A stretch of 64,000 nucleotides of DNA from Gammaproteobacteria bacterium (GTDB lineage Bacteria; Pseudomonadota; Gammaproteobacteria; Eutrophobiales; Eutrophobiaceae), in assembly GCA_965248145.1 (NCBI GenBank), contig OZ252091.1, positions 3,218,082-3,282,081 of the forward strand, in the 5' to 3' direction. The notes under the pieces are model-generated. The model searched no databases, had not been told where the DNA came from, and saw only the letters and a list, made by a program, of their open reading frames with translations. How positions within the stretch are numbered: position 1 is the stretch's first letter; each line of letters starts with the position of its first letter. The translations under genes and the position numbers were made by a program. Below, one piece after another: positions 5,128 through 61,520 of the stretch.

Positions 5128-5151
5128 TTCCGTCCCCAATACCGTCCTCTG

Positions 5152-6437: not shown

Positions 6438-6908
6438 TTGCCGGAGCAAATAGCTTTGAAACATCGTAGACCACTGCGGCTGGAAGCATTTCTGCCGTAC
6501 CGGTTGTCCCTGTTGTCCAATGCCGTCAGTGGCGCCATCGCTGCCGTCTACGGGGATAAATTTGCCATTTCCATGCCGGAATGGCGCATCATGATGATCC
6601 TGGCAGAGTATCCTGGAGCATCCGCCGATGAAGTGTGCCGGCGCACAAAAATGGAAAAATCCGTGGTTTCCCGCGCCGTATCACGATTGCTGAAGCGCCA
6701 TCTTATCGACCGGCACATGGACGAAAAAGACAGGCGCCGTTCAAGATTGAAATTATCTGAAACAGGTTTAACCGTCTATGATGAGGTGATGCCTATTGCC
6801 AGGAATTACGAAGAAAAACTGTTGTCGAATTTAACCGGGGAAGAACTGAAAACATTTAACAGTATCATTGATAAATTGATGGATGGAGCAAACCATTTTG
6901 AATACTGA
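6438..6908 (+). CDS. MarR-family transcriptional regulator
   Basis: 156 aa with a winged-HTH MarR core (MPEWRIMMILAEYPGASADEVCRRTKMEKSVVSRAVSRLLKRHLIDR). Confidence 0.8.
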   Translation: MPEQIALKHRRPLRLEAFLPYRLSLLSNAVSGAIAAVYGDKFAISMPEWRIMMILAEYPGASADEVCRRTKMEKSVVSRAVSRLLKRHLIDRHMDEKDRRRSRLKLSETGLTVYDEVMPIARNYEEKLLSNLTGEELKTFNSIIDKLMDGANHFEY

Positions 6909-6978
6909 CCGGTCATCACTTATAGGGGACGGAATTAATTCCGTCCCGCGCGTCTTGTAATTTAACCGGGGAAGAACT

Positions 6979-8067: not shown

Positions 8068-8110
8068 CGCAGATGAACGCAGATGAAAATTTTTCTTCAG
8101 ACGGGGGTAT

Positions 8111-9115: not shown

Positions 9116-9216
9116 TGTCCCCGCTCACGATAATACTGACAACAGCGGCCACCCGTTATCCTGGCGATGTATCCCGTCAAAGGACATGAGACCAATCTGA
9201 TTATAGAACTCTAACT

Positions 9217-10701: not shown

Positions 10702-10732
10702 CCATACAAACCCCAAGGGGTCGCTTTCCCCC

Positions 10733-10886
10733 GTCATTCCGGCGAATGCCGGAATCCAGTGAGATAGAGAGTCGCCTCCGGCGACACGTTATTAGACTGG
10801 ATTCCGGGTCAAGCCCGGAATGACGGGGGGGGTGGCTTTCGCAGGAATGACGGGGGGCACATCTGCTATTCCCGCGGAAGCGGGAA
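10733..10886. repeat. Cluster of nested-palindrome MITE-like elements (GTCATTCC...GGAATGAC family; contains dRS3-like ATTCCC-N8-GGGAAT)
   Basis: One full copy at 10733-10826, of the form GTCATTCC-GGCGAATGCC-GGAATCCAGTG...GTCGCCTCCGGCGACAC...CTGGATTCCGGGTCAAGCCCGGAATGACG. Partial copies follow (GGAATGACGG; ATTCCCGCGGAAGCGGGAAT). The cluster sits between the convergent 3' ends of the FAD oxidase and ccmG. Confidence 0.8.
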
Positions 10887-10900
10887 TGGCATCTTCAACG

Positions 10901-11479
10901 TTATCCGCTGTTTCTTAATGAGCGGATCAGCGGCAGTAAATCAGTTTGCCAGTCCTGCCAGCTTATGGGGCCGATGTGCTTATATCGAATAATACCCCGG
11001 GCATCGATGACAAACGTTTCAGGCGTGCCGTAAACCCCCCATTCGATAGCCGCTTTTCCGTCTGTGTCAACGGCATTGGCCCGGTAAGGGTCGCCGCGTT
11101 TCTCCAGCCATTGCACGGCCTTATGGGGTTCGTCCTTATACAATAATCCATAAACGGGCACTTCATTACTTGCGGCAATTTTCATCAGCGTGGGGTGTTC
11201 CCGCTTGCAGGAAACACACCAGGTTGCCCAGACGTTCAATAAGCTTACTTCCCGTTCAAGAGTGGATTGGGTGAATACTTCGTTCGTATTTTTCAGTGCG
11301 GGTAATGAAAATTGCGGTACGGCCTGACCTATCAAAGGCGAGGGAACCAGACGCGGATTCAATCCCAGGCCAAAATAGAATAACAGGACGAGAAGCAGCA
11401 AAATACCCAGGGGCAGGAGATAAACCCAACGCCCGGACCGATATACGCGGGGTTCAGGCAGAGCCGACATAACCTGCAT
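10901..11479 (-). CDS. ccmG: thiol:disulfide interchange protein CcmG/DsbE (cytochrome c biogenesis)
   Basis: Thioredoxin fold with a WCVSC active site. Membrane anchor present. It lies downstream of ccmF and overlaps it. Confidence 0.85.
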   Translation of the reverse strand: MQVMSALPEPRVYRSGRWVYLLPLGILLLLVLLFYFGLGLNPRLVPSPLIGQAVPQFSLPALKNTNEVFTQSTLEREVSLLNVWATWCVSCKREHPTLMKIAASNEVPVYGLLYKDEPHKAVQWLEKRGDPYRANAVDTDGKAAIEWGVYGTPETFVIDARGIIRYKHIGPISWQDWQTDLLPLIRSLRNSG

Positions 11480-17270: not shown

Positions 17271-17300
17271 TAAATGGACAGATTTATATTTCCGTGATCC

Positions 17301-17390
17301 GTCATTCCTGCACAAGCAGGAATCCAGCCCAATAACGTGCCGCCGAAGGCGTGTCGTTTTACTGGATTCCGGCATTCGCCGGAATGACGG
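17301..17390. repeat. MITE-like nested-palindrome element (GTCATTCC...GGAATGAC family)
   Basis: gtcattcctgcacaagcaggaatccag ... ctggattccggcattcgccggaatgacgg. It lies at the convergent 3' ends of the hypothetical CDS and the TonB receptor. Confidence 0.75.
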
Positions 17391-37493: not shown

Positions 37494-37637
37494 GGGACAG
37501 ATCCTGACTTATCCTCACGAAATCGAAGTCCCGCCCCTGGATTCTGGCATTCGCCAGAATGACGACAGTGCAGGAAAACGCGGTCTGCCCCTTACACCTA
37601 TCCCAACCCTTCACTACGACAGAGGAACGTTAAGCTG

Positions 37638-44932: not shown

Positions 44933-45094
44933 GATTCTATTATAACAAATAGTTATATTTATCCAACTACTATAAGATATATTTCTAAATCAATTCCATC
45001 ATCACCAGCCCGTATTTCTCACTAATACCAGCCCTGGAATGGCGTAATCCAGGGGATGCGCTACGTGTATTTTGGGACACCCGCAAAATAATTT

Positions 45095-45448
45095 ATGGAT
45101 GTCCCTGATTTCATTTCACGGGGTTGGACATATCAATGGAAAACGGGTCAACGTGGACGAGGTGGTTTGTTGTCAACAGATAAGTTCCGACACGGTGTCA
45201 GGCTATGTTATAATCCTGGTATGCCTGAAGAAAAACGGATGGAACAGGAAATTGGTTGGCATAAGATTATTTTTACTATTTTTACTGTGACAGACCTTTC
45301 GTTGCTGGCGTGGTTCGTTCAGAACTTTGAAACAGCAAAGCTATCAATTCTGATACTTTGCTCAATTTCCGTTACTGTTGTGACGGTAATTTTGGTTCTT
45401 ATCAATAATCGTGTTTTCATGTGCCTTGACCGGTTAGAAGAGCTATAA
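45095..45448 (+). CDS. hypothetical small membrane protein
   Basis: Two predicted TM helices (IIFTIFTVTDLSLLAWFV; LSILILCSISVTVVTVILVLI). The start is uncertain. Confidence 0.3.
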   Translation: MDVPDFISRGWTYQWKTGQRGRGGLLSTDKFRHGVRLCYNPGMPEEKRMEQEIGWHKIIFTIFTVTDLSLLAWFVQNFETAKLSILILCSISVTVVTVILVLINNRVFMCLDRLEEL

Positions 45449-45553
45449 ATGGAATACTTATTCATTTTTACATTTGGCGTGTTTATAGCCGGGTTGATCG
45501 TTATCAGTTATCAAGCCCTGAAACATAAGCATTCAAAATAACGCAAAACCATC

Positions 45554-45751
45554 ATGAAATATACGGTTGTCATTAAAGCGTCAGACGAAGGCTACAGCAT
45601 ATCTTGTCCGGTTCTTCCCGGATGCTGGTCTCAAGGCATAACGGAAGAAGAAGCGATTACAAACATCAGTGAAGCTATTCAGGATTACCTGGCGGCTGTA
45701 TCAGAATTACATAGAGGAGAAAAAATCCGCGAGATTGAAGTAGCTGTGTAA
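45554..45751 (+). CDS. hicB: HicB-family antitoxin
   Basis: MKYTVVIKASDEGYSISCPVLPGCWSQGITEEEAITNISEAIQDYL matches the HicB/UPF0150 fold. Confidence 0.7.
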   Translation: MKYTVVIKASDEGYSISCPVLPGCWSQGITEEEAITNISEAIQDYLAAVSELHRGEKIREIEVAV

Positions 45752-45753
45752 TC

Positions 45754-45972
45754 ATGCCCAAAATCCCCGGAGTAAATCATCGTCAAGCTGTACGCGCGTT
45801 GAAGAAATCCGGATTCAAAATTGTCAGGGAAGGAAAAAAACATCTGATTATGTCAGATGGTACGCGTTTTCTTACAATTCCAAGAAATAATCCGATTAAC
45901 GCCTACACAATGGCTGGAATAGTCAAAGACACAGGACTGACTGTCGAAGAATTCAAGAAGATGCTCAAGTGA
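45754..45972 (+). CDS. hicA: HicA-family mRNA interferase toxin
   Basis: 72 aa of the YcfA/HicA family (AVRALKKSGFKIVREGKKHLIMSDG). Confidence 0.7.
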   Translation: MPKIPGVNHRQAVRALKKSGFKIVREGKKHLIMSDGTRFLTIPRNNPINAYTMAGIVKDTGLTVEEFKKMLK

Positions 45973-46118
45973 ATATCTGTTATAAAACATCCTGTCTGAC
46001 GAGATAATTTAAACGCCTGGGGCATCTGCCGGGTTGCAGCAATTCCTTTTTAATCTGTTCTGATGCAAATAATATCAAAATGATTCAGTCCCCAGGGAAT
46101 AGCGGATAGAATGGACCC

Positions 46119-47798: not shown

Positions 47799-47851
47799 AA
47801 GGTGTCGCCCCCTGCTCAACACCATGCTGGGGCAGGCTCCGGCGACTCCTT
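47799..47851. repeat. 53-bp perfect direct repeat, left copy (aaggtgtcgccccctgctcaacaccatgctggggcaggctccggcgactcctt)
   Basis: Identical to 48906-48958. The pair brackets the Rpn pseudogene. Confidence 0.85.
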
Positions 47852-47854
47852 ATA

Positions 47855-48884
47855 TTATCGGATTAACCCCGCGTCGCTAAGCTGCTCAGGGCTAAGACCC
47901 GTGATTTCACTGACCTCTTGCAGGGAATAATCGTTCTGCAACATAGCGCGGGCGCTTTCAATTCTACCTTCTGCTCTGCCTTCTGCTTTGCCCTCTGCCC
48001 TGCCTTTTGCTTCGCCCTCTGCTCTGCCTTGCTCTCTACTCACCAACATATTCGTGTTGTAGTCCAACTCGCCCTTGCGACGCATCTCTTCAATACTTAA
48101 CAACTGCGGGTCTATCGACAGGGTCCGCAGATCCTTCAGGGTCTCCTTCATGATCGGATTTTTGTCTACTATAGTACGCATGGCAGCCTCGTCTAACGAT
48201 GATGTGTGTTTGATAATATATAACCATAGTCCCAGGTTGTCATCTATTTCTTCCAGTGTCCGGGTAAACTTGGGTAGTTCAAAAAACACCATCTGGAACT
48301 TGTCCGTCAGTTGTATATCAGGATGGTCTTTCTCCAGTATCAGGAAATGACTCTGGTAGTCCGGCAGGTCGAGCAGGTTGAAGTTCAGGAAGTTGATGGA
48401 ATAGGTGTTCTGCAGGGTCGTGTAGTTCTCGCCCTGGTTGAGTTGACCGGTATACAGCCTGGCCCCAGTAGTACAAGGCCCGGGCGCTGTAGAAGTGCTG
48501 TTCCAGGGCCTGCATCTCGATATTGAACAGGTCGCCGGCATGGCTTCGGGCCTTGATATCCAGTATTACCGATTTGTCGATCAGGTGCTCTTTGAGTATT
48601 TCAGCCGGCAGCAGGGTGAGTGCTTCTATCTGTTGTTCTCCTTCAAACCTCAGAGCCGCATTGAGCAGGTCTATCAGGGAAGCGGTGGAGCGCGTAAACA
48701 GGGCGCGAAAGACAAAATCATAGGTGAGGGCTAACAGCCTGGGATGGTCCATCATGAGATACCTGTATGTCCTATAAGTACGGGCTGAAACCCGGCAGCC
48801 GGTCCGGCGCAGTGATGGAGTCGGTCTTACAACCTTTCCACCACCACTGCGAACCAGTTTACCTGCCTGTTTTGCAAAAGTCAC
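47855..48884 (-). pseudogene. Rpn-family (YhgA-like, PD-(D/E)XK) recombination-promoting nuclease / transposase-like gene, frameshifted
   Basis: The N-terminal part is in ORF 48318-48884 (KSVILDIKARSHAGDLFNIEMQ). The C-terminal part is in the overlapping ORF 47855-48541, in another frame (EGEAKGRAEGKAEGRAEG...ITGLSPEQL, the typical Rpn C-terminus). Confidence 0.7.
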
Positions 48885-48905
48885 TTATTTGTTGACAACC
48901 TTTGG

Positions 48906-48958
48906 CAAGGTGTCGCCCCCTGCTCAACACCATGCTGGGGCAGGCTCCGGCGACTCCT
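48906..48958. repeat. 53-bp perfect direct repeat, right copy
   Basis: Identical to 47799-47851. Confidence 0.85.
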
Positions 48959-49125
48959 TGCCCACTGAGTTAACGAACCAAAAAACGCAATCACATCGCA
49001 GTTGCACTCAGCGCCTGTCTGTGTCATCATCCTGCTATTGTTTCATTACAGGAATATTATTGTGAATATAAAACAGTTAACCGGCGTTCCCATGGCACCT
49101 TTAACATCCACAGATGGTGACCTTT

Positions 49126-49134
49126 ATGGTATAA
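49126..49134 (+). promoter_or_regulatory. extended -10 promoter element TGgTATAAT upstream of the giant autotransporter gene
   Basis: tggtataat at 49126-49134. No convincing -35 element at 17-bp spacing. Confidence 0.4.
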
Positions 49135-49142
49135 TGGCGGGT

Positions 49143-49191
49143 AGCCGACAGCCGACAGCCGACAGCCGACAGCCGACAGCCGACAGCCGAG
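49143..49191 (+). repeat. heptanucleotide simple sequence repeat (AGCCGAC)x6 plus AGCCGAG in the leader of the autotransporter gene
   Basis: A perfect 7-bp tandem tract lies 28 bp upstream of ATG 49219 and immediately downstream of the TATAAT box. The copy number was deduced from the translation of ORF 49002-49265 (SRQPTADSRQPTADSRA). Confidence 0.85.
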
Positions 49192-49218
49192 CTATGTCTG
49201 GATTCGCCGGGGCGCGCC

Positions 49219-52200
49219 ATGCCTCAGCTAGCGGGCGCCTCCGGGCTGCGAGAATGCCCACCTGAATCTTTCTACTCCGCGTCCCCATCGCGCGGGGATT
49301 TCCCTCAGACCTCATCGTTCCGCCGCATCGCGGCGGCCTCGCGTGGGCTGCTTCGGGCAGCGGCTACGCTCGCGTTCGTCGCGTCCATCGCCATCCCGGC
49401 GTCGGCTCAGGCCGCCGAACTGGTCAGCAACTTCGACCAGACCGGCGACACGAGTAACGGTGTGAGTAGGGCAGTCGCGCAACAGTTCACGACGGGTACG
49501 AACTCGGGCGGCTACACGCTGACCAACATCAAGTTCAAGTCCGAGGACACCGATGGCGATTCCTACTCGGTGTCGGTGTGCACGGTTCTCGCTTCGGGAT
49601 TTCCCGACGAGACAGACTGCACGGCGCTCACCGCGCCGAGCGGCACTAATGCCTTCGCGGCCGGGACCCACACTTTCGCCGCGCCGGACGCCACCACGCT
49701 CAAGAAGGAGACGAAATACACCGCGCTCATCACCATCCCAGACACAGAAAATGTCACCCTTGACGCGACAACCTCCAATGGCGAGGACACCGGCGGCGCC
49801 GCCGGATGGACGATCGCAGATGCATACGATTTCAAGAACTCTTTTAATGTGTGGGGTACAGCCCCCCCCCCATTTGGCTCGGAGATTCGCATCGAGATCA
49901 ACGGGGAGACCCCACCGACAGTCTCCTCGGTAGCGGTCACCTCGACGCCGAGCGCGGCCAGCGATACCTACGGGGCGGGCGAGGAGATCGAGTTCACCGT
50001 CACCTTTTCGGAGGCGGTCGAGGTGAGCGCGGGCCAACCGCATTTCGAGTTCGCGCTCGGCAACTCGGGCAGCCCATCCGTGGACAAGGATGCGACCTAC
50101 CAGAGTGGCTCGGGCTCCACGGCGCTGGTGTTCGCCTACACGGTGGTGGCCGCCGACATGGACGACAACGGCATCTGGGTCGGAGATCAGTCGCGTACCC
50201 TGATGCTCGACACCGGCGAATACATCCGCGCCGTGGACGACCAGACCTCGGCCACGCTCACCCACGCCGCACTAAGCACGCAATCCGGCCACAAGGTGGA
50301 CGGCAGCCTGATGGTTACCAACAACGCCCCGGTATTCCCGGCCGAGGCGTCGACGCGCGAGTTGACGGAGAACGTGGCGGCGAACGTGAATGTCGGCGCC
50401 CCGGTGAGGGCGACCGACGGCGAAGGCGACACGCTGACCTATTCGTTCGGCGGGACGGACGTGGGCAAGTTCAATTTCAATGCGGCGACGCAACAGATCA
50501 CGACCAAGTCGGGCCAGACTTACGACTACGAGACGGATGCGTCCTACACGGTGACGGTCACGGCGACCGACGGCACGACGCCGACCACCGTCACCGTGAC
50601 CATCAATGTGATCGACCTGCCCGCGATCAGCATCGCGCCAGAGCCAGGGAAGGCGCGGCTGCTGATTACGGCGGGAGTGGTCTCGGTCGATCTGTCCGGG
50701 TCGCCGCGGCCCTCTGGCAACCTTACGATCAACTTTTCCGCGCAGCAGGACCATGACTGGTTCTCGAGTTCCTCTCTTACGGGTAGTACGCACTACGACA
50801 GACCCGACGACGAATATGGGCAGCCCAGTTTCACTTTCCTAGCGGACGCGCCGGTAGAGAGCGGCGACTTCACGGTTACGCTGCAGCCGGGCGACGGCTA
50901 CGAGATCGGCACGGCGGCGGCGACCGTCGAGATCGTCGCGGCGGACCCGGTGATCACGGTGCGCGCGGCGGAGGCGGCCTACAGTTTCGGGGAAGGCGAC
51001 GGCACGGTGACGGTGACGCTCACGGCGGAGACCATCGCCGATGCGCCGAAGCCGAGAAATAGCATCTTTGTGAACTGGTCAACTACGGCGGGCACGGCGA
51101 CCGGCGGCGGCACGGATTTCGAGAACGGCAACGGCGAAGTCCTGTTCGGCTCGGGGAACTTCACGCAACAGGGCACCCGCTGGGTGGCGACCAAGGATAT
51201 CGAGGTCATCCTGGTGGACGACGCCGTGAAGGAAGAGACCGAACAGTTCCAGGTGACGCTCACGAGGCACTCCAGCCTGCACCCGCTGGTCAAGCTGGCG
51301 AACGTGGACAGGTCGCTGTGCGCGCCGGGCGTCAATTGCGGCACGACGGTCAACATCCTCGACAACGAACCCGGCGTGACGATCTCGAAGACGGCACTGG
51401 ACATCCTCGAAGGCGGCACCGGCAGCTACACGGTGGTGCTCGATTCTGAGCCGACGGCGACGGTGACGGTCACGCCGTCGCGCACCAGCGGCGATACGGA
51501 CATCACCGTGAGCGGCGCCCTCACCTTCACCACAACCACCTGGAGTGTGGCGCAGACGGTGACGGTCAGCGCGGCCGAGGATGATTCGGATTCGGATGTC
51601 GATAGGGCCGTGATCGGCCACGCGGTGAGCGGCGGCAACTACGCCTCGGTCACGGCCGCTTCGGTGGCCGTCACCGCGGCTGACAACGATGCGCCCGACG
51701 AGTCCGCCACCGGCAAGCCGACGATTTCAGGGACGGCGCAGGTCGGCCAGACGCTGATCGCGGCGAAGGGCAGCATCGACGACCCAAACGGGCTGACCAA
51801 GGCCGACAACGACGAGACGGGCTTCGCCTACACCTACCAGTGGATCCGGGTGGATTCCGACGGCACGTCGAACCCGATGAATGTCGGGACCGACTCCGAC
51901 GCCTACCCGCTGGTGGCGGCGGACGAGGACAAGCAGATCCGGGTCAGGGTGAGCTTCGTGGACGACAATGGCTACGCGGAGGCGCGGACGAGCGACCCGT
52001 ATCCGTCCTCGGACACGGTCCTGCCGTCTTCGGCGGTGAGCCTGTTGTTGTCGCCTGCATCGATCCGCGAGAACGGCGGCACGACCAGGATCAGGGCAAG
52101 GCTGAACGTGGAGTCGAGTGCCGAGACGACGGTCACGGTATCGGTCGAGCCGGTCCCGCCGGCGGTTGCCGGGGACTACGAGCTGAGCGCCAACACGGTG

Positions 52201-55200
52201 CTGACGATTCCCGTCGGGCGGACCTCCAGCACGGGCCTGGTGACGCTGACGGCGGTGAACAACGATGTGGACGCGGACGACAAGACGGTCATCATCCGGG
52301 GTGTTGCGGAGAACAGCGCGGGCGTTGGCGCTCCGGCGGAGCAGACGCTGACGATTGAGGACGACGATCAGGGCGTGCGGCTGAGCCCGACGTCGCTGAT
52401 GATCGATGAGGGCCGCAGCAAGGGCTACACGGTGGTGTTGGGGTCGCGACCCACGGGGTCGGTGACGGTGACGCCGCAGGTCACGGGCGGCATGGTGACG
52501 GTGTCGGGGCCGCTCGTGTTCACGCGGGACAACTGGGACGAGCCGCAGACGGTGACGGTGACGGCGGGCCAGGACGAGGACGAGGAGGACGAGACGGTCC
52601 AGGTGACGCACCTGGTGTCGGGCGCGGATTACGGCGGCTTCACCGCGGGCAGCGTGCGGGTGATGGTGAGCGACGACGACGGCGGCACGGGCGTGCTGGA
52701 GGTGGGTGTGTATGACGGCTCGGCCGGGGCCGGCGTCAAGGACCCGCCGCCGCGGGTGCATTTCGGGCAGCGGTTCCGGCTCGACCTGGTGTGGTCGCAT
52801 CTGCGCACCAAGCATTGGGCCAAGCCGCAGGGCGCGATCGGGCCGACCCGGGCGATCCGGGTGGTCGGCGGGACGGTGCGCCCGGTGCAGGGGCGGTTCA
52901 GCGTGTCCAGCCACGGCTGGGACCAGTCGCGCCTGACGCTCGAGGTCACGCCTGTGCCGAGCGCAGACAGCGACGACGTGACGCTGGTCCTGGAGCCGTT
53001 GGATTGCAGCAGCAATGACCCGAAGGCGCTGTGCTCGCTCGACCGCGGGAGGTGGACCGGCCTGGCGAAGCGGGTGCGCTTCACGGTGCGGGGCATCACC
53101 GGCGCACCGGTGATGGCGGCGGCGGAGCTGGACCTGACGGTGACCCCGCAGGAACGGCGCGGCAAGGATTCCTTCCTGGTGAGCTTCGACGCCGACGAGG
53201 AGGGGACGCGCTTCCGGCTGCAGATGCAGGAGGCCGGCGGGGACTGGTCGAGGAAGAGCGAGTGGACCGGGGCGATGCGCTCGGAGAACCAGCATCGGGT
53301 GACGGTCGACGGGGTGTCGCACGATGACGCCTACCAGTTCCGGGTGCGCTGGGAGAACCGCTTCGGGAATGGGCCGTGGGCGCAAGCGAGCACGGCCGGC
53401 GCGGCGCCGGCGGCGCCGACGGGGCTCAGGCTGACGCCGATGTACCAGGACAAGAGTCTGGCGCTCGCCTGGACCCCGGTGACGCAGGCCGGGGTGCGGA
53501 TCGAGCGGTTCCAGTACCGGATCGACCGAACCCGTAGCGAGGAACTGGTGATCCTTTCGGACACGGGGCCGATGCAATACCGGGGCAATTGGGTCGACAT
53601 CCCGAACAGCGGACGAGGCAACGCGAACTACCGTTCGTGGACGATCGGGGGACTCGCGAACATGTGGGCCGCCAGGATCCGCGTGCGTGCAGTGAACGAG
53701 TCAGGCCGTGCGGGCACGCCCTCAGCGGAAGCGGTGGCGCCGCTCGACGTGCCGCGGGTGGCGGACATCTCGATGGCGTCGGACCCCGGTGCCGACGGGT
53801 ACTACACGTACGGAAACAAGATCGGGATCAACGTGCGGCTGAGCCGTCCGGTCCGCATCCCGGGTAACGATCAGAGACCGTCACTGGACGTCGAGATCGG
53901 CGGCGGCGTGTACAGCATGGGGCTGGTGTCGATCCGGCAGTCGGTGGCGCATGAACTGATCGGACAGGCGCCGTGGTCGGGCGACGTGCTGTTGTTCGAG
54001 CACAGCCTTGGTACAGGTGACGTGGACCACAACGGGATCCGGGTACCGGCCAGCGCGCTCAAAGGCAATGGAGGACGGCTGCTCGACCTGACACCCGCGG
54101 GAGAGGGCCAGTTGGCGGACCTCGCCGTGAGCACGGCAAAAACCTTCCCGGCGCACAGGGTGAACACGGTCCCGCCGCGCATCGTGCGCATGACCTGGCA
54201 GCAGAACCTGGACGCGAACGGCGTGGTGCGGGGCGCCGAGGTGCGCATCCACTACGACCGCGACCTCGACCCGAATTCGAGACTCAGTCTCGACTGGAAT
54301 CAGTACCGGGTCGAGTATTCAGAGTCGCGGGCGCTCGGGCGCGACGTGACGGGCCTGAGCATCGGCGACGCCACCGACGACGGTGTCGATAACCCCCGGA
54401 CGGTGCGGCTGGTCCTGAAGCGGGTGGTCCATGGTTCGGGCGCCACCCCGCACAACAGCCCGCAGCTGAATGAGACCGTGTGGGTGACCTATACGGGAGT
54501 GGGAGTGAGTGGGAACAGCGGGCGGCGATTCGGCCCGTTCGATACGCTGGGGAACCCTGTCGCGGGCTTCACCCGGAGGGTGGCGGAGCACGTGACCGCG
54601 ACGCAGGCAGCGTTGGCGGCGGAGTTCCGGAACGTGCCGGCCGGGCACAACAGCCCGTTCACCTTCGAGGTGCATTTCAGCGAGGAGGTCACGCTCACCG
54701 AAGAGATGCTGCTGAACTCGGTCTTCACGGTGACGAATGGCACGGTGTCGGCCGCGCGGCGGCTCAATCCGCCGAGCAACATCGCCTGGGAGATCACGGT
54801 CGATTCATCCTCGGACGAAGCGGTGACGGTGGTGCTGCCGAAGACGACGGACTGCACGGCGGCGGGCGCGATCTGCACCTGGGACAACCGCCCGCTGTCG
54901 GCGGAGATCTCGGCGACGGTGGCTGGCCCGCCGACCGTGGTGACGAGTGTGGCGGCGACCAACGCACTGACGGCGGAGCTGCGGGACCTGCCGGAGAGCC
55001 ACGACGGGAGCGCGTTCACCTTCGAACTGCGCTTCAGCGAGGCATTCCCGATCAGCTACCTGACGCTGCGTGACCGTGCGTTCACGGTGACCAACGGACA
55101 TGTGACCGGGGCGAGACGCCTGGACAATCCGCACCACGAGTCCGCCGGTATGGAACCCAACCGGGAGTGGGAGATCACGGTCGAGCCCGGCACGGGCGCC

Positions 55201-58200
55201 GAAGAGGTGTCGATTATCCTCCCTGAAACGACCGACTGCACCGCGACCGGCGCCATCTGCACCGCGGACGACCGTGCACTGTCGGTGGGGGTAGCGGTGT
55301 TCATCGGGGCGGACTCGGAGGACGAGGAGGCGGTAGTGGTGGATGAGCCGACAGTGGAGCCGACACCGAACGCGACCGGCGCCCCGGTGATTACGGGCAC
55401 GACGCAGGTGGGTAAGACTCTGACCGCGGCGAAGGGCAGCATTGCCGACACCGACGGGCTGACCAGGGCCGACGCCAGCGCTACGGGCTACACCTACAGC
55501 TACCAGTGGATGCGGGTAGACGGCACGTCGAAGACCGGCATCACCGGCGCGACGTCAAGCGCCTACACGCTGGCCGCCGCCGATGAGGGTAAGAAGATCA
55601 AGGTCAAGGCGAGCTTCCGGGACGACGCCGGCACTGACGAGGCGCGCACCAGTGCGGCCACCGGGACGGTGGCGGCTGCGCCTCCGCCTCCGCCGCCGCC
55701 GCTCACGGCAGCGTTCTCCGACGTGCCGTCGACACATGACGGCTCAACGGCGTTCGTCATGCACTTCCGCCTCAGCGAGGAGCCGCACGACCTAAGCTAT
55801 GTCACGGTGCGCGACTCCGTGTTCGACGTGACCGGCGGGCGCATCGAGCGCGCCAAGCGGCTGACGCAGGGCAGTAACCAGGGCTGGGCCCTGCGGGTGG
55901 CGCCGTCCGGCGACGGCGACGTGACCGTGCGAGTGAAGAACACCACCGCGTGCACGAGCGGGCCGAAACTGTGTAGCGAAGACGGGCGCATGCTCGCAGG
56001 CGGTCTTCAGGTAAGTATCGAAGGCCCACCACCGCCGGCGCTGTCGGTGGCGGATGCGACAGTGCAAGAGGCCGCGGGGGCGACACTCGCCTTCGCAGTC
56101 ACCCTGGACCGGACGCCCAACACCGCGGTGACGGTCGACTACGCCACTGCGGACGGGACCGGGACCAGGCCCGCGAACGCGGGCACGGACTATACCGCAA
56201 CCAGTGGCACGCTCACCTTCGCCAGCGGGGAGAGCAGCAAGACCGTCTCGGTCGCCGTGCTTGATGACAGCCACGATGAGGGTGAGGAGACCATGTCCCT
56301 GACCTTGTCGAACCCGTCCGGCGCCAGTATCGCTGATGCCACGGCAACCGGGACCATCACCAACACCGATGCCATGCCGCTGGCCTGGCTGTCCCGCTTT
56401 GGCCGCACCGTGGGGACGCATGTAATGACCATGGTGGACGAGCGTATGCTGGCGGCCTCGCAGCAGGCGTCCCACCTGACGTTGAATGGCCGACAGTTGC
56501 AGTGGGGTACGCCGGGGCAGGCGGACCATGGCCTGTCCGACCGCGCACGGGCGTTACTCGGCAACTGGACCCGGGACCGGCAGTCGCTGGAGACCCTGCT
56601 GAGCGGGAACGTAGGCGGAAGCCCGCGCGAAGTCCTGTCCCGCAGTTCGTTCTATTGGAGTAATGTGCCCGTCCCCGGGTCGGATACAGGACAAGGAGTC
56701 GCCTCCGGCGACACAGTATCTGACTGGATGCCGGGTCAAGCCCGGCATGACGAAGGTGGTGCAGCCGGACCTGAGCCGCTCTGGCCGGACATGGGTCAAT
56801 CCCAAGATGGCGAAAGCAGCACTCCGTCATTCCCGCGAAAGCGGGAATCCAGTGAACAAACCGTCGCCGCAGGCGACACCTTATTCGACTGGACTCCGGG
56901 TCAAGCCCGGCATGACGAAGGTGGTGCAGCCGGACCTGAGCCGCTCTGGCCGGACATGGGTCAAGCCCAAGATGGTGAAAGCAGCACTCCGTCATTCCCG
57001 CGAACGCGGGAATCCAGTGGACAAACCGTCGCCTCCGGCGACACAGTATCTGACTGGATGCCGGGTCAAGCCCGGCATGACGAAGGTGGCGCAGCCGAGC
57101 CTGAGCCGGTCTGGCCGGGCGCAGCCGAGGCAGACACCGGGCCGCGCTGGTCGGTCTGGGGCCGCGGCATGATGACGGGCTTCAACGGCCAGGATGGCGA
57201 TGTGTCGCTCAACGGCGACGTGTTGACCGGCCTGCTGGCCGCAGACTACAGCCACGGCCGGCTGCTGGCCGGGGTGTCCCTGTCCTACAGTGACGGGCAC
57301 GGCAGCTACAGCCAACCCGGCGACCCACAGGGCAAGGTCAAGAGCACTCTCACCGGGGTCCATCCATACCTGCGTTACGAAGTGAACCAGAGCCTGTCGG
57401 TATGGGGCGTACTCGGCTACGGCCAGGGTGCAGTGACACTGACCCCGGGCAGTGCCGGGGACGCTGGGGACGGACTTAAGTCCGTCCCCGGAGAGGTCAT
57501 CGAGACCGACATGAGCATGGGCATGGGCGCCTTCGGGGCGCGCGGCACGCTGTTGTCCGGGAACGGCCTCAACCTGGCGCTGAAGTCGGACGTCCTGCTG
57601 GTGCGTACCGACGCACAGGACACCGACGGACTGGCGTCCCTGGATGCAGTGGACACCAGCCGCCTGCGCCTGGCCCTGGAGGGCTCGCGCATGCTCCAAT
57701 GGGCGAACGGGCGCAGCCTGCTGCCGGCCCTGGAACTGGGCCTGCGCTATGACGACGGCGATGCCGAGACCGGGTTCGGCGCCGAACTGGGTGGCCGGGT
57801 GCAATACCAGGATATGACCCTGGGCCTGACCGTGGCGACCCATGCCCGGGTCCTGCTCGCCCACGAGGACAGTGGCTATGAGGAATGGGGACTGGGCGGC
57901 TCGCTCAGCCTCGACCCCGGCGCCGCCGGACTGGGGGCGTCCCTGGACCTGCGCTCCTCCTGGGGCGCCGTGGCCAGCGGCATAGACGGGTTGTGGTCAC
58001 AACAGACCACCGCGGGTCTCGCGCGGGGCGGCATGGAGAGTAATCGTGCAATGCAGTTCGAGACCCGGTTGGGGTACGGCCTGGAGGTGCCCGGCGGGCG
58101 TAACCTCCTCACCCCGTACGGTGGCCTCACCCTGGCCGGCCCCAACTCCCGTGTGTACCGCCTGGGTGGCGTATTCAGACGCGGGGAGTTACTTGAGCTG

Positions 58201-58281
58201 AGCCTGGACGCCGAGCGCCGGGAAAACCTCGGCGCCCTGCCCGACCACGGCCTGATGCTGCGTGTTTCCATGCCGTGGTAG
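49219..58281 (+). CDS. giant (3020 aa) autotransporter adhesin
   Basis: The roughly 64-aa N-terminal region ends in AFVASIAIPASAQA. The passenger contains cadherin-like repeats, an FN3-like region, and repeated Cys-pair (TTDCTA(T/A)GAICT) and Calx-beta-like (VTVTP...SG.L.FT...W...QTVTV.A..D) modules. The linker carries AMPLAWLSRFGRT. The C-terminal roughly 300-aa beta-barrel ends ...RVSMPW. GC is about 65% against about 50% for the flanks. Confidence 0.8.
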   Translation: MPQLAGASGLRECPPESFYSASPSRGDFPQTSSFRRIAAASRGLLRAAATLAFVASIAIPASAQAAELVSNFDQTGDTSNGVSRAVAQQFTTGTNSGGYTLTNIKFKSEDTDGDSYSVSVCTVLASGFPDETDCTALTAPSGTNAFAAGTHTFAAPDATTLKKETKYTALITIPDTENVTLDATTSNGEDTGGAAGWTIADAYDFKNSFNVWGTAPPPFGSEIRIEINGETPPTVSSVAVTSTPSAASDTYGAGEEIEFTVTFSEAVEVSAGQPHFEFALGNSGSPSVDKDATYQSGSGSTALVFAYTVVAADMDDNGIWVGDQSRTLMLDTGEYIRAVDDQTSATLTHAALSTQSGHKVDGSLMVTNNAPVFPAEASTRELTENVAANVNVGAPVRATDGEGDTLTYSFGGTDVGKFNFNAATQQITTKSGQTYDYETDASYTVTVTATDGTTPTTVTVTINVIDLPAISIAPEPGKARLLITAGVVSVDLSGSPRPSGNLTINFSAQQDHDWFSSSSLTGSTHYDRPDDEYGQPSFTFLADAPVESGDFTVTLQPGDGYEIGTAAATVEIVAADPVITVRAAEAAYSFGEGDGTVTVTLTAETIADAPKPRNSIFVNWSTTAGTATGGGTDFENGNGEVLFGSGNFTQQGTRWVATKDIEVILVDDAVKEETEQFQVTLTRHSSLHPLVKLANVDRSLCAPGVNCGTTVNILDNEPGVTISKTALDILEGGTGSYTVVLDSEPTATVTVTPSRTSGDTDITVSGALTFTTTTWSVAQTVTVSAAEDDSDSDVDRAVIGHAVSGGNYASVTAASVAVTAADNDAPDESATGKPTISGTAQVGQTLIAAKGSIDDPNGLTKADNDETGFAYTYQWIRVDSDGTSNPMNVGTDSDAYPLVAADEDKQIRVRVSFVDDNGYAEARTSDPYPSSDTVLPSSAVSLLLSPASIRENGGTTRIRARLNVESSAETTVTVSVEPVPPAVAGDYELSANTVLTIPVGRTSSTGLVTLTAVNNDVDADDKTVIIRGVAENSAGVGAPAEQTLTIEDDDQGVRLSPTSLMIDEGRSKGYTVVLGSRPTGSVTVTPQVTGGMVTVSGPLVFTRDNWDEPQTVTVTAGQDEDEEDETVQVTHLVSGADYGGFTAGSVRVMVSDDDGGTGVLEVGVYDGSAGAGVKDPPPRVHFGQRFRLDLVWSHLRTKHWAKPQGAIGPTRAIRVVGGTVRPVQGRFSVSSHGWDQSRLTLEVTPVPSADSDDVTLVLEPLDCSSNDPKALCSLDRGRWTGLAKRVRFTVRGITGAPVMAAAELDLTVTPQERRGKDSFLVSFDADEEGTRFRLQMQEAGGDWSRKSEWTGAMRSENQHRVTVDGVSHDDAYQFRVRWENRFGNGPWAQASTAGAAPAAPTGLRLTPMYQDKSLALAWTPVTQAGVRIERFQYRIDRTRSEELVILSDTGPMQYRGNWVDIPNSGRGNANYRSWTIGGLANMWAARIRVRAVNESGRAGTPSAEAVAPLDVPRVADISMASDPGADGYYTYGNKIGINVRLSRPVRIPGNDQRPSLDVEIGGGVYSMGLVSIRQSVAHELIGQAPWSGDVLLFEHSLGTGDVDHNGIRVPASALKGNGGRLLDLTPAGEGQLADLAVSTAKTFPAHRVNTVPPRIVRMTWQQNLDANGVVRGAEVRIHYDRDLDPNSRLSLDWNQYRVEYSESRALGRDVTGLSIGDATDDGVDNPRTVRLVLKRVVHGSGATPHNSPQLNETVWVTYTGVGVSGNSGRRFGPFDTLGNPVAGFTRRVAEHVTATQAALAAEFRNVPAGHNSPFTFEVHFSEEVTLTEEMLLNSVFTVTNGTVSAARRLNPPSNIAWEITVDSSSDEAVTVVLPKTTDCTAAGAICTWDNRPLSAEISATVAGPPTVVTSVAATNALTAELRDLPESHDGSAFTFELRFSEAFPISYLTLRDRAFTVTNGHVTGARRLDNPHHESAGMEPNREWEITVEPGTGAEEVSIILPETTDCTATGAICTADDRALSVGVAVFIGADSEDEEAVVVDEPTVEPTPNATGAPVITGTTQVGKTLTAAKGSIADTDGLTRADASATGYTYSYQWMRVDGTSKTGITGATSSAYTLAAADEGKKIKVKASFRDDAGTDEARTSAATGTVAAAPPPPPPPLTAAFSDVPSTHDGSTAFVMHFRLSEEPHDLSYVTVRDSVFDVTGGRIERAKRLTQGSNQGWALRVAPSGDGDVTVRVKNTTACTSGPKLCSEDGRMLAGGLQVSIEGPPPPALSVADATVQEAAGATLAFAVTLDRTPNTAVTVDYATADGTGTRPANAGTDYTATSGTLTFASGESSKTVSVAVLDDSHDEGEETMSLTLSNPSGASIADATATGTITNTDAMPLAWLSRFGRTVGTHVMTMVDERMLAASQQASHLTLNGRQLQWGTPGQADHGLSDRARALLGNWTRDRQSLETLLSGNVGGSPREVLSRSSFYWSNVPVPGSDTGQGVASGDTVSDWMPGQARHDEGGAAGPEPLWPDMGQSQDGESSTPSFPRKRESSEQTVAAGDTLFDWTPGQARHDEGGAAGPEPLWPDMGQAQDGESSTPSFPRTRESSGQTVASGDTVSDWMPGQARHDEGGAAEPEPVWPGAAEADTGPRWSVWGRGMMTGFNGQDGDVSLNGDVLTGLLAADYSHGRLLAGVSLSYSDGHGSYSQPGDPQGKVKSTLTGVHPYLRYEVNQSLSVWGVLGYGQGAVTLTPGSAGDAGDGLKSVPGEVIETDMSMGMGAFGARGTLLSGNGLNLALKSDVLLVRTDAQDTDGLASLDAVDTSRLRLALEGSRMLQWANGRSLLPALELGLRYDDGDAETGFGAELGGRVQYQDMTLGLTVATHARVLLAHEDSGYEEWGLGGSLSLDPGAAGLGASLDLRSSWGAVASGIDGLWSQQTTAGLARGGMESNRAMQFETRLGYGLEVPGGRNLLTPYGGLTLAGPNSRVYRLGGVFRRGELLELSLDAERRENLGALPDHGLMLRVSMPW
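56698..57115 (+). repeat. about 2.5 in-frame tandem copies of a 165-nt unit containing the GTCATTCC...GGAATGAC MITE, inside the autotransporter linker
   Basis: The unit starts at 56698, 56863 and 57028, a period of exactly 165 nt (55 codons). Each unit contains gtcgcc(tcc/gca)ggcgacac ... ctgga.tccgggtcaagcccggcatgacg ... gtcattcccgcgaa(a/c)gcgggaatccagtg. Each unit is about 85% identical to the intergenic element at 10733-10826. Confidence 0.85.
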
Positions 58282-58931: not shown

Positions 58932-59771
58932 TTGATGCCGCCTTTAAAACGTATGCTGAGTTCCTTTGCTCTTATCGTTTTAACCCTGTTTCTTGGCTTT
59001 ATGTTCCTGCTCTTTGTATTTCAGGAAAAATTGATCTTTTTTCCAAGAAAGGGGATCGGCGACACGCCTGGAAGTATCGGTTTACATTATGAGGATGTTT
59101 ATCTGGTCACGGTTGATAAAATTAAAATCCACGGTTGGTATGTCCACCATCCTGATGCGAAAGGAACCCTGTTGTTTTTTCACGGTAATGCCGGAAATAT
59201 TTCCCATCGTATTGAATCAATTTCCATATTTCATGACATCGGTTTATCGGTTTTCATTATCGATTACCGCGGATACGGTAAAAGTGATGGGCGGCCTTCT
59301 GAGCATGGGACATACCAGGATGCAATGGCCGCCTGGGATTATTTGGTTGATGAACGCAATTTACACCCGGATGAGATCATCGTATTCGGTCGTTCCCTGG
59401 GCGGTGCGGTAGCCGCTTCATTGGCCGCAAAGGTCACGCCCGCAGCGGTTATATTAGAATCCACATTTACGTCCATTAAAGAGTTGGGGAAATACTATTA
59501 TCCCTATTTGCCTGTTTCCTGGATTTCACGGGTACTTTATCCCACAGATAAATATATTACCTCGTTCAACTGCCCGGTCTTAATTATCCATAGCCATCAA
59601 GATGAGCTGGTCCCGGTCAGATTCGGCCAACGCCTGTTTAAATACGCGCCGGAACCGAAAATGTATCTCTCTATTTCCGGAGATCACAATAACGGGTTTT
59701 TACTAAGCAAAGATGTCTATGTCAACGGCATCAAACGTTTCCTTCAAACCTACGTGGATGCGCAATTCTGA
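58932..59771 (+). CDS. alpha/beta hydrolase (BEM46 / serine aminopeptidase S33-like) with N-terminal TM anchor
   Basis: HGNAGN oxyanion motif, GRSLGG nucleophile elbow, and an N-terminal hydrophobic segment. Confidence 0.75.
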   Translation: MMPPLKRMLSSFALIVLTLFLGFMFLLFVFQEKLIFFPRKGIGDTPGSIGLHYEDVYLVTVDKIKIHGWYVHHPDAKGTLLFFHGNAGNISHRIESISIFHDIGLSVFIIDYRGYGKSDGRPSEHGTYQDAMAAWDYLVDERNLHPDEIIVFGRSLGGAVAASLAAKVTPAAVILESTFTSIKELGKYYYPYLPVSWISRVLYPTDKYITSFNCPVLIIHSHQDELVPVRFGQRLFKYAPEPKMYLSISGDHNNGFLLSKDVYVNGIKRFLQTYVDAQF

Positions 59772-59871
59772 GGTTGGCACTCGCTCATATCGACCATGGC
59801 AAGAACATACTTGATTGTCCGATACGGGCATTTGCCAGCCGTTACAAATTTCAGGAACGACTGTAGAAAAA

Positions 59872-60282
59872 CTAACAGCTTTCCAACCAATCTTTTATTT
59901 TGAGGCCGCCAACACGCATAAATTCTCTCACGTTATGCGTAACAAGGGTTGTCCTCAGAGTCTTGGCATGGGCCGCTATCAGTAAATCATACGGACCAAT
60001 CGGATTACCGGTCTTCTTAAGTTCGGCGCGCAGGTTTCCGGCAGCGTATGCACATTCCTTAGTCCACTCCACTACCTGAATATATTCAAGAAAACTATTC
60101 AACGTGTGCGTATTTTGTTTCCGTTTTTTTGATTTACTCACACCGTATTGCAGTTCATACAAACTAATCGCCGAGATTCCCACCTCATCCACACCATTCT
60201 TTATCAATTGTTGACGAACCTGAACAGGGTAATTGTTCATGATCGCGATGGAAGTATCCGTATCCAGCAAGAACTTGAGCAT
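59872..60282 (-). CDS. vapC: VapC PIN-domain ribonuclease toxin
   Basis: 136 aa. The N-terminus LLDTDTSIAIM carries the PIN acidic residues. It lies downstream of vapB. Confidence 0.8.
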   Translation of the reverse strand: MLKFLLDTDTSIAIMNNYPVQVRQQLIKNGVDEVGISAISLYELQYGVSKSKKRKQNTHTLNSFLEYIQVVEWTKECAYAAGNLRAELKKTGNPIGPYDLLIAAHAKTLRTTLVTHNVREFMRVGGLKIKDWLESC

Positions 60283-60284
60283 GT

Positions 60285-60527
60285 TTAATCCTTTATCGAT
60301 GCACGGGGAATATCACCTGGTAGTTGTACGCCTTCAATGGAAAAATCTTCTGATAATGGGGGGGTATCGTCCATAAAGCCTTTCCATGACGCCGGTGTCG
60401 GTGAGATGATAATATTTTTCCCTTCTTTTCTGATGAGTACGACATCACTATCCATCCGAAAATTACGGGGTAATCTCACGGCCTGGCTGTTACCGCTTTT
60501 AAATACTTTTGTCGTTTGCTGATGCAT
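60285..60527 (-). CDS. vapB: VapB antitoxin (SpoVT/AbrB-like swapped-hairpin domain)
   Basis: 80 aa (KVFKSGNSQAVRLPRNFRMDSDVVLIRKEG). Confidence 0.75.
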   Translation of the reverse strand: MHQQTTKVFKSGNSQAVRLPRNFRMDSDVVLIRKEGKNIIISPTPASWKGFMDDTPPLSEDFSIEGVQLPGDIPRASIKD

Positions 60528-60665
60528 GGAACCTCTTATTGAATATTCTTCTATATATACTAAAGTATATACATTCCAGCTTAAATTTCAAGTTTTTTAT
60601 AGTAGTCTGAGTAGTGTCATGACGACCACCTGTTTACTTTCAGGTTCAAGCCGGCTGCCCTGAAT

Positions 60666-61520
60666 CTACTCCCCCATCAACTTCTCTGTAAACACCATTT
60701 GTTCGGACTTTATCAACTCTTTATCCACATCGTCAGCAAAACGACTGATATAGTCACCTCCCTGTGGATATTCCTTCCATTTATTTCTCGTAGAAAACGC
60801 AAAAATGTCGGTGCTCCGTATATCCAGTTTTACCTTCCCGTCCGATAAGTCACCCAAATGCCCCGCAATGCTTGATAACGCTTTTTTCTTGGGTTTGCCC
60901 ACCCGGTCGAATTCCAATACGCGAAAAATATCGTTGGCCTGCTCATAAGTGTAACCAACGGATTCAACCTGATTTAAGTATCCCATCATCATGCCAAACA
61001 GCAGCCGCGCAGATATGGGGTTCAGGTAGTCTTTACTACCGACATCAAATACAGTGTGCATGACCGCAGGCGCCATACCTTGATCAACGGGCACATGGCA
61101 CAACAACAGAACACTATCCTGAAAATAGATATACCCGATCATTGATGCCAGTGAAATGATGTCTTCACTGGTAGAATTTGCTGTTATATTCAGGTGGGCA
61201 TTGATGGAAGTGCCGGAGACTCCCTGATAGCCACCCTGAGTAATGAGTATGTCCCGAATCTTTATTTTGTTAACGAGGCCGGGGCTGATGGCCAGGATTG
61301 ATTCAAGACGTTGACTCTGGTTCCGTGACAGTACTTTCCGTTGTTCCCGGTTCAACCTGGAAACTCCTTCAAACACTTTTTCCCCTAATATGCCGGCTGC
61401 ATCTTTATTTGGATATACTTCATAGAACAGTTCGCAATCAGGGCTTGATAATTTCTCTGCGGCGGCAAAAACAGATATTGGAACAAGAAAAAGTAAGATT
61501 ATTCTTGCCAGGCTCGGCAT
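60666..61520 (-). CDS. hypothetical secreted protein (284 aa, signal peptide)
   Basis: Signal MPSLARIILLFLVPISVFAAA. No recognisable domain. Confidence 0.4.
   Translation of the reverse strand: MPSLARIILLFLVPISVFAAAEKLSSPDCELFYEVYPNKDAAGILGEKVFEGVSRLNREQRKVLSRNQSQRLESILAISPGLVNKIKIRDILITQGGYQGVSGTSINAHLNITANSTSEDIISLASMIGYIYFQDSVLLLCHVPVDQGMAPAVMHTVFDVGSKDYLNPISARLLFGMMMGYLNQVESVGYTYEQANDIFRVLEFDRVGKPKKKALSSIAGHLGDLSDGKVKLDIRSTDIFAFSTRNKWKEYPQGGDYISRFADDVDKELIKSEQMVFTEKLMGE

Follow-up and report, generated by a model that had tools for sequence, protein, structure and literature searches.

The DNA analysed here is a 64,000-nucleotide (nt) part (hereafter, the window) of the 3.77-Mb circular metagenomic contig OZ252091.1 (positions 3,218,082 to 3,282,081), assigned to an uncultured gammaproteobacterium, whose CcmF is 73-74% identical to proteins from metagenome-assembled genomes of Thiotrichales and Gammaproteobacteria. 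The window carries a giant open reading frame (ORF) for an autotransporter-like protein, which begins with a signal-like segment, continues through a long passenger region and ends in a β-barrel. In the connector that precedes this barrel, a 165-nt unit is repeated in tandem and in frame, and each unit contains a palindromic element that also occurs in intergenic DNA of the same window. We place this element among REP (repetitive extragenic palindromic) sequences of the CGTC type, and we judge with a probability of about 80% that the repeated module is selfish DNA rather than an ancestral protein domain, a REP dimer having entered the connector and then been tandemly amplified. The coordinates of the features are collected in Table 1.

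Tandem Repeats Finder reports one array in the gene, at 56698-57118, with a period of 165 nt, 2.6 copies, 90% matches, 0% indels and a score of 730. By blastn, the first unit is 92.7% identical to the second and 95.6% identical to the partial third. The ORF at 49219-58281 runs through the array without interruption for 3020 amino acids (aa), and position 56698 is a first codon position. An original prediction, made from the sequence alone, of a 165-nt unit repeated in tandem and in frame therefore holds, and the peptide translation given with it is right. The same prediction had the element embedded in the unit. Each unit of 55 codons does contain one 93-nt palindromic element, but the element straddles the unit boundary, and a 72-nt spacer completes the unit. 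An assembly artefact can be ruled out, given that the units differ from each other by 4-13% and that the circular contig has 98x coverage; two further independent contigs that carry an equal array or one that is a unit shorter also contradict it.

The two arms of the element are inverted copies of each other, and the whole folds as a nested palindrome whose core is made up of two CGTC-tagged REP hairpins in a head-to-head dimer. REPs of this type are defined by a CGTC (or TGTC/CCTC) head, an 8-bp stem starting with AT, a loop of 4 or 5 nt and a tail that fits CCA (Di Nocera, De Gregorio and Rocco 2013, PMC3733652). They occur mostly as head-to-head dimers with the tags outside and with conserved, often structured spacers of 20-100 bp, and they have no dedicated transposase (PMC3733652). 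When we scanned the window for a CGTC head followed by a stem of 8-9 bp and a loop of 3-6 nt, nine canonical units were found, whereas 100 block shuffles of the window gave a mean of 0.43 and a maximum of three. All nine units start with CGTC and carry a CCAG tail. Their stems (ATTCCCGC, ATTCCGGC, ATTCCTGC and ATGCCGGG) are 8 bp long and begin with AT, and their loops are GAAA, GAAC, GAAT or ACAA (4 nt) or CTTGA (5 nt). The heads point outward in every dimer, and the intervening 36-38 nt contain a hairpin of their own, GTCGCCNNNGGCGAC, which is conserved from the window to a locus in a Dadabacteria metagenome-assembled genome (MAG) described below. Single-strand folding of the dimers yields z-scores of -5.2 to -8.9. 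The term MITE, for miniature inverted-repeat transposable element, used in the original prediction, suits the terminal inverted repeats but is otherwise loose, given the REP anatomy and the lack of target-site duplications.

One CGTC family, CGTC-1, corresponds to the dRS3 repeat of Neisseria (PMC3733652), which has since been extended to a 28-nt sequence, the NTS, with the consensus CGTCATTCCCGCGMAVGCGGGAATCYRG. This sequence is a substrate of the GIY-YIG nuclease SsnA, which binds and cuts it in single-stranded DNA only, and NTS-like hairpins, termed Ssn-related motifs (SRMs), co-occur with ssn genes in many bacteria (Nat Commun 2025, PMC11893778). We counted as matches any sequences with at most one mismatch to CGTCATTCCCGCGMAVGCGGGAATCYRG or with a fit to the degenerate SRM pattern. 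Both left arms retained in the gene agree with the NTS consensus without a mismatch, and the intergenic arms of the host deviate at 3-5 positions of the stem or loop. Five REP units of the window fit the SRM pattern; a sixth match to this pattern, at 3317-3346, is not a REP unit.

Several observations indicate that the array is foreign to the protein. When the best 120 homologues of the C-terminal 636 aa are considered, the peptide of the element is present in only three, namely an orthologue that is 80% identical (P0001) and two more distant proteins (P0005 and P0009), and it is missing from the other 117. In the alignment, the insertion-free connector comprises about 20 residues, from a conserved SSFxLSL strand to the motif IETxxAxPxxPGHWSLWGRG. 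The G+C content at third codon positions (GC3) is 0.58 in the array versus 0.85 in the gene, which has an overall G+C content of 0.67; ten other genes of the window have GC3 values of 0.51-0.70. An AlphaFold2 model built on a 50-sequence alignment (mean predicted local distance difference test score, pLDDT, 70; predicted template modelling score 0.67) has pLDDT values below 50 at residues 107-251 of the C-terminal fragment, and the array occupies residues 110-249. Because the array is absent from nearly all homologues, differs in GC3 and is modelled as disordered, we conclude that it is an insertion and not native coding sequence, as originally proposed for an in-frame palindromic element.

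A word-indexed protein search with a 97-aa module gave no matches, and the peptide strings of the module were not found in the literature. A HMMER search of the 55-aa unit against 1.84 billion representatives gave 12 hits, where the only real large protein is that of the orthologue cluster. Because the remaining hits are short ORFs within REP clusters or unrelated low-complexity proteins, widespread in-frame use of the unit is not shown. For annotation purposes, peptides of the SFPRKRESS or WMPGQARHD type should be read as translations of REPs and not as domains.

Table 1. Features of the giant ORF, of the array and of related REP copies. Positions are those of the window; the last three rows refer to the Dadabacteria locus.
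Feature	Position	Strand	Remarks
Giant ORF, 3020 aa	49219..58281	+	N-terminal signal-like segment; passenger with Cadherin, fn3 and Calx-beta domains (Pfam matches); C-terminal β-barrel ending ...RVSMPW
Conserved pre-barrel domain	56371..56688	+	AMPLAWLSRFGRT...; helix, β-hairpin, further helices, SSFYW strand
β-barrel from RWSVWGRG	57145..58278	+	~18 DSSP strands in model; nearest solved folds are type Va translocators
Tandem array, 2.6 x 165 nt	56698..57118	+	Tandem Repeats Finder, blastn; ~140 residues rich in Pro, Gly, Asp, Glu and Ser
Truncated first REP dimer	56698..56752	+	Central hairpin GTCGCCTCCGGCGAC and right arm kept; left arm gone (36-nt in-frame deletion relative to L001)
72-nt spacer, copy 1	56753..56824	+	EGGAAGPEPLWPDMGQSQDGESSTP; by inspection, looks like a degenerate right arm in its second half (MGQ(A/S)QDGE vs MPGQARHDE)
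Complete REP head-to-head dimer B, 93 nt (31 codons)	56825..56917	+	SFPRKRESSEQTVAAGDTLFDWTPGQARHD; two stem mismatches in right arm
Left arm of dimer B	56825..56852	+	0 mismatches to Neisseria NTS consensus CGTCATTCCCGCGMAVGCGGGAATCYRG
72-nt spacer, copy 2	56918..56989	+
Complete REP head-to-head dimer C, 93 nt	56990..57082	+	Both arm stems and central hairpin perfect
Left arm of dimer C	56990..57017	+	0 mismatches to NTS consensus
Right arm of dimer C	57054..57082	-	Minus strand CGTC ATGCCGGG CTTGA CCCGGCAT CCAG; stem variant compensated relative to host intergenic ATTCCGGG/CCCGGAAT
Partial third spacer	57083..57118	+	Last 30 nt flanked by 11-nt direct repeat GCGCAGCCGAG; these 30 nt missing in L001
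Intergenic REP head-to-head dimer between convergent genes	10732..10826	+	Followed by REP fragments to ~10890
Second intergenic REP head-to-head dimer	17300..17389		Ends 14 nt 3' of the stop codon of a TonB-dependent receptor gene; spacer differs
Single CGTC REP unit	37537..37564	-	CGTCATTCTGGCGAATGCCAGAATCCAG; scanner, NTS comparison
L003 site 1			After first hairpin of pre-barrel domain
L003 site 2			Connector homologous to that holding the window array
L003 site 3			Long loop between modelled strands 5 and 6; predicted extracellular

Outside the gene, the window contains two intergenic dimers, one single unit and some fragments. A blastn search with 10733-10826 recovers 56826-56917 and 56991-57082 at 84.9% identity over 93 nt (E 5e-22), which agrees with the figure of about 85% given originally, and also the half copy at 56696-56752 at 89.5%. 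The intergenic copy at 17299-17390 is 81% identical to the one at 10733, in reverse orientation. Neither intergenic dimer is present in a syntenic locus (L127) that is otherwise 96-98% identical, where only a 12-nt end remnant lies at the site of the 17300 dimer. This comparison documents a quick turnover of REP sites in the host lineage, as judged from the two aligned sequences. Window positions 9122-10900, a 1.78-kb segment that holds a gene for an FAD-binding oxidase (9217-10701) and the REP cluster, are likewise missing from L127 (12530-12534), and the cluster sits at one edge of the indel.

The arm hairpin itself is distributed far more widely. A search with the exact arm pattern, using one genome per species, found it in at least 120 loci from Beta-, Gamma- and Deltaproteobacteria, Chloroflexota, Patescibacteria, Bacteroidota, Acidimicrobiia, Nitrospirae and a Bathyarchaeota MAG. 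Because the pattern spans many phyla, the arm is not specific to this host. Complete dimers that include the central GTCGCCNNNGGCGAC hairpin are far rarer than the arm among the matches listed. The claim of a 'host family' must therefore be divided: it fails for the arm, and it retains some merit for the specific dimer, whose closest non-genic relative among the matches listed is the intergenic copy of the host. The exact arm pattern in Bathyarchaeota, Patescibacteria and Saccharibacteria MAGs (L079, L009 and L043) reflects either true cross-domain spread or binning contamination. Searches of the window in Rfam (at the gathering threshold) and for tRNAs gave no matches.

The element has entered this adhesin family more than once. 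The Dadabacteria MAG locus (L003, encoding P0005) holds three copies of a GC-richer variant of the dimer at three sites (Table 1). Among themselves these copies share 89-93% identity, and with the genic copies of the window 74-80%; all of them are read on one strand and in one frame, giving SFPRxRESGGQGVAAGDxVSxRMPAPVRHD. In a further locus (L124, encoding P0009), a left arm and centre are found at a connector homologous to that of the window, in a gene that a frameshift divides in two; either this is a pseudogene or the long reads contain an error. Altogether, eight genic copies in three lineages share one strand and frame. The nearest relatives of P0005 and P0009, which are 79-93% identical to them in the barrel, are free of the element, and none of these proteins is more than 56% identical to the window lineage. 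Given that the nearest relatives lack the element and that the lineages are distant, we regard the hits in the window lineage, P0005 and P0009 as separate events. Inheritance of the P0005 and P0009 insertions from a single ancient event is rejected on the same two grounds. The pre-barrel connector of this family thus appears to be a permissive site that has been struck repeatedly.

Two side observations concern these relatives. In L124, positions 2517-11270 encode two tandem adhesin paralogues (SRCR, Cadherin-like, Calx-beta) flanked by PIN/PhdYeFM toxin-antitoxin pairs, and the break in the first paralogue coincides exactly with the REP remnant. The connector of P0025 contains ...AGQAGRHDEQGE... 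(cf. PGQARHDEGG), and by this resemblance AGQAGRHDEQGE may be a decayed remnant of a right arm that hints at a further, older insertion.

Alleles of the gene differ in the length of the array. The orthologous locus L001 (with P0001 and P0143) has about 90% nucleotide identity to the window from 55204 to the stop codon and contains exactly one 165-nt unit fewer. It retains a full left arm where the first copy of the window has a 36-nt deletion, and it lacks the 30 nt that are bounded by an 11-nt direct repeat in the window. These length differences of 165, 36 and 30 nt are all multiples of three. Thus, the length variation that had been anticipated is seen as alleles of 2.6 and 1.6 units. A third gene copy, on another contig of the same sample (L126, encoding P0126), is 97.5% identical to the window over 8.4 kb and has an equal array of 2.6 units. 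The third unit resembles the second in P0126 and the first in the window, a pattern that indicates gene conversion between units, as far as sequence resemblance can tell. The 1.6-unit allele (L001 3744-4076; C-termini of P0001 and P0143) also has a frameshift that cuts the barrel short, ending in …GRGRPWICAPPGAPWPAA. This frameshift is present in two independent contigs and represents either a pseudogene or a shared long-read error.

Evidence for conservation of the hairpins comes from substitutions that preserve base pairing. When 11 dimers from four loci were aligned and scored against the nested structure, 94% of cells were paired, versus 26-45% in slid controls. Compensatory double changes occur in five of the 30 pairs, a count that was equalled by two of 500 shuffles, although the sequences are related and the count is therefore not a probability. 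One compensated change lies within coding copies: where the window reads ATGCC..GGCAT, L126 has ACTCC..GGAGT, which converts WMPGQARHD to WTPGQARSD (M to T, H to S). Because the coupled amino-acid changes keep the complementarity of the hairpin, constraint at the level of nucleic acid is indicated, and the protein sequence here appears to be dictated in part by the secondary structure of DNA or RNA.

The gene is part of a larger unit. Together with about 1.5 kb of upstream DNA that includes a PDDEXK_2 gene, it forms a block that lies in differing surroundings in the window, L126 and L001. Between the window (47799-49335 plus 49909-58280) and L126 (8538-18933), this block of about 10.5 kb is 93-97.5% identical, with unrelated flanks. 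The PDDEXK_2 nuclease/transposase-like gene of the window looks split, with overlapping ORFs at 47855-48541 and 48318-48884 on the minus strand. A stretch at the N-terminus of the adhesin (49336-49908) has no match in L126 and, by this comparison, may have been swapped. Within 49909-58280, the window and L126 differ at 0-1 positions per 300 nt at 50.8-54.7 kb and at 11-28 per 300 nt at 55.6-57.7 kb, with a divergence of 5-9% beyond 55.6 kb. This mosaic of identity suggests recent recombination between adhesin alleles. Low-GC islands (0.41-0.45, against a background of ~0.52-0.57) are found at 4001-5000, 45001-46000 and 59001-61000, the last directly 3' of the high-GC adhesin gene.

Because all three gene copies carry the array in their different contexts, the array predates the latest relocations. 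The earlier statement that it was inserted after the host acquired the gene is therefore not supported. The host intergenic copy is 88-90% identical to the genic copies of L001, and no closer non-genic copy was found among the matches listed. The closeness of this copy and the quick turnover of REP sites favour an origin in the REP pool of this lineage, to the extent that sequence similarity is a guide.

The original prediction described the protein as an autotransporter. The best structural matches of the modelled barrel in Foldseek are type Va translocators (BrkA, E 5e-7), with FadL and BamA close behind, and 'autotransporter-like' is thus a fair description. The full term is not established: the Pfam autotransporter β-domain PF03797 has no match in the C-terminal 636 aa even at E<=10, and the model contains about 18 DSSP strands over 378 residues. 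Type Va autotransporter barrels have 12 strands and an α-helical linker that fills the pore. Compared with the type Va translocators EstA, AIDA-I, NalP, Hbp and BrkA, the window protein differs by the missing PF03797 match, the barrel of about 378 aa, about 18 modelled strands and the structured domain of about 100 aa that precedes them. The model of this pre-barrel domain consists of a helix (2-28), strands (35-44), two helices (55-77 and 85-90) and a strand (93-97), mostly with pLDDT values of 80-94, and its AWLxRFGR and SSF motifs hardly vary among 50 homologues. PF03797 matches two of these 50 homologues (best E 9e-5) and the generic OMP_b-brl matches 25; a profile search against PDB sequences gave no match. 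The barrel family, which has no specific Pfam model, is common in metagenomes (382 hits at E<=1e-3). Judging from the model, the barrel and its pre-barrel domain may constitute an undescribed class of autotransporter-like translocator.

This architecture bears on the location of the array. Outer-membrane barrels have both termini in the periplasm and long loops outside, and the loop lengths of the model fit this parity. The array ends nine residues before the first β-strand, and by general barrel topology the residue that precedes this strand should be at the periplasmic face. From the modelled topology the array would then lie in the periplasm or else pass through the pore, and the earlier suggestion that it lengthens a surface-exposed stalk does not agree with this placement.

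We propose that a 93-nt variant of the dimer, which provides 31 codons in a frame without stop codons, entered the short, variable and unstructured connector between the pre-barrel domain and the first β-strand. It would have survived there because the connector tolerates additional hydrophilic, disordered sequence. Unequal recombination or slippage between copies could then have generated the array with its period of 165 nt, comprising the element and the 72-nt spacer. Mobilisation might have involved an Ssn-type GIY-YIG nuclease, or else replication or recombination at the hairpins. The peptide would accordingly be a tolerated passenger rather than a functional gain.

Some results weigh against this proposal. 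The 10 copies inspected are not bordered by direct repeats that could represent target-site duplications. In the 64 kb available from the 3.77-Mb contig, neither a transposase gene nor an ssnA-like gene was seen, and mobilisation therefore stays putative. A search with a GIY-YIG motif expression likewise found nothing in the window or the fetched loci, and no insertion sequence (IS) with the ends of the element turned up in the window, although derivation from an IS was not itself tested. More than one history fits the array, and insertion with later unequal crossing-over is among them. The first copy of the 72-nt spacer (56753..56824) has no match among 123 loci except in the L001 orthologue. 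Furthermore, when the window is compared with L126, the ratio of nonsynonymous to synonymous changes (dN/dS) amounts to 0.32 for the array and 0.19-0.22 for its flanks, based on 25 differences that are confounded by gene conversion. Neutrality of the array is thus not demonstrated, and the peptide may be under some constraint.

The same dN/dS value, which is not near 1, could be taken to mean that selection favoured a connector that is longer, flexible and acidic and that serves either as an extended stalk or as a tether spanning the periplasm. Such a domesticated spacer would also be compatible with connectors struck in at least three lineages in a single strand and frame, with allelic length differences that are all multiples of three, and with retention of the array in three gene copies that are 90-97% identical. 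However, preservation of frame is expected for any surviving insertion in an essential part of an ORF, and two things account for the frame in use: only three of the element's six reading frames lack stop codons, and this one gives the most hydrophilic peptide. Given also that nearly all homologues work without the array, that the region is predicted to be disordered and that the coupled amino-acid changes keep hairpins, we consider a functional spacer unlikely. Likewise, the term 'domestication' in the original prediction implies an acquired function, and none was found, whereas compensatory changes still maintain the hairpins within the ORF.

Constraint on the hairpins could alternatively mean that they are the functional component and the peptide a by-product, serving as Ssn-type cleavage sites that shape recombination or transformation, or as signals for mRNA processing or stability. 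The genic arms match the SsnA substrate consensus perfectly, stem changes in coding copies are compensated, the gene forms a recombination mosaic found in three contexts, and the NTS repeats of Neisseria cluster near surface-antigen genes (PMC11893778). Yet a young or still active selfish element would keep its hairpins equally well, the mosaic breakpoint is at about 55.6 kb and not at the array, and no ssn gene is identified for this genome in the 64 kb scanned. We therefore judge this explanation to be very unlikely. Even less credible is the reverse derivation, in which an internal repeat of the gene was copied out into intergenic DNA and then spread, the outcome that the original prediction had named as fatal to its own claim. 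Although no other NTS matches in the window are as well preserved as the genic copies, the hairpin arm is a described and experimentally studied repeat of many phyla, nearly all homologues lack the module, and the array does not share the GC3 bias of the gene; this scenario is effectively refuted.

Insertion of a selfish REP dimer into a tolerant connector remains our preferred account. A bolder extension of it is distinctly unlikely on present evidence: one REP-dimer subfamily, common to this gammaproteobacterium and Ca. Dadabacteria, would land repeatedly, with one strand and frame, in the pre-barrel connector and in loops of a horizontally exchanged family of giant adhesins, the genic NTS hairpins would be live Ssn-type substrates, and the array would be a REP-driven contingency locus. 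If this were true, the array would act as a built-in hotspot of breakage and recombination that varies the length and sequence of a surface protein.

The in-frame insertion of CGTC REPs and of Rickettsia palindromic elements (RPEs) into genes is a known phenomenon, the locus is a clear and well-documented further case of it, and it does not represent a new kind of system. The element resembles the published CGTC-1 and CGTC-2 REPs (PMC3733652) in head, stem, loop and tail, in its head-to-head dimers, in sites 3' of ORFs or between convergent ORFs, and in the occurrence of in-frame intragenic dimers and of dimer clusters reiterated with flanking DNA, the last being a frequent make-up of REP clusters (PMC3733652). 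Intragenic CGTC dimers are reported to encode 20-30 aa and clusters 43-82 aa (PMC3733652), whereas the window array extends this to about 140 aa in frame. The host here is an uncultured gammaproteobacterium, and the target is an outer-membrane adhesin and not one of the DNA-repair genes stressed in that study. With the dRS3/NTS repeats of Neisseria (PMC11893778), the locus shares the exact 28-nt consensus in its genic left arms, other copies that fit the SRM pattern, and an association with surface-protein genes and symbiont-type genomes. Unlike the Neisseria repeats, the NTS copies in the window lie inside coding sequence and are translated, and the available DNA showed neither an ssnA gene nor an NTS-ssnA-NTS unit.

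The REP-derived hairpins known as REPINs, and the bacterial interspersed mosaic elements (BIMEs), similarly consist of two inverted REPs with a spacer that form a long hairpin as the replicating unit, and they are polymorphic between close relatives. They differ in that they are GTAG-tagged and linked to the IS200/IS605-like RAYT transposases, with which CGTC REPs are not associated. Like the Rickettsia elements RPE-4 and RPE-6, the element is palindromic, is found both in genes and between them, and is inserted in ORFs in a consistent frame, to which it adds hydrophilic surface or loop segments. Classical RPE-1 is longer (~100-150 nt) and not tandemly amplified, and the host here, unlike Rickettsia, is not obligately intracellular. 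The likeness to RPEs that was first suggested is closer than had been thought, given the published equivalence of CGTC-1 and CGTC-4 with RPE-6 and RPE-4 (PMC3733652), on which the link rests. What this locus adds is the tandem amplification with allelic copy number, the exact identity of the arms to the Neisseria NTS, and the recurrent hits in one connector of an adhesin family across phyla. The locus thus joins three usually separate literatures, those on CGTC REPs, on Neisseria NTS and Ssn nucleases, and on Rickettsia RPEs, in the form of a perfect NTS hairpin that is translated, amplified and still kept by compensatory changes inside an ORF.

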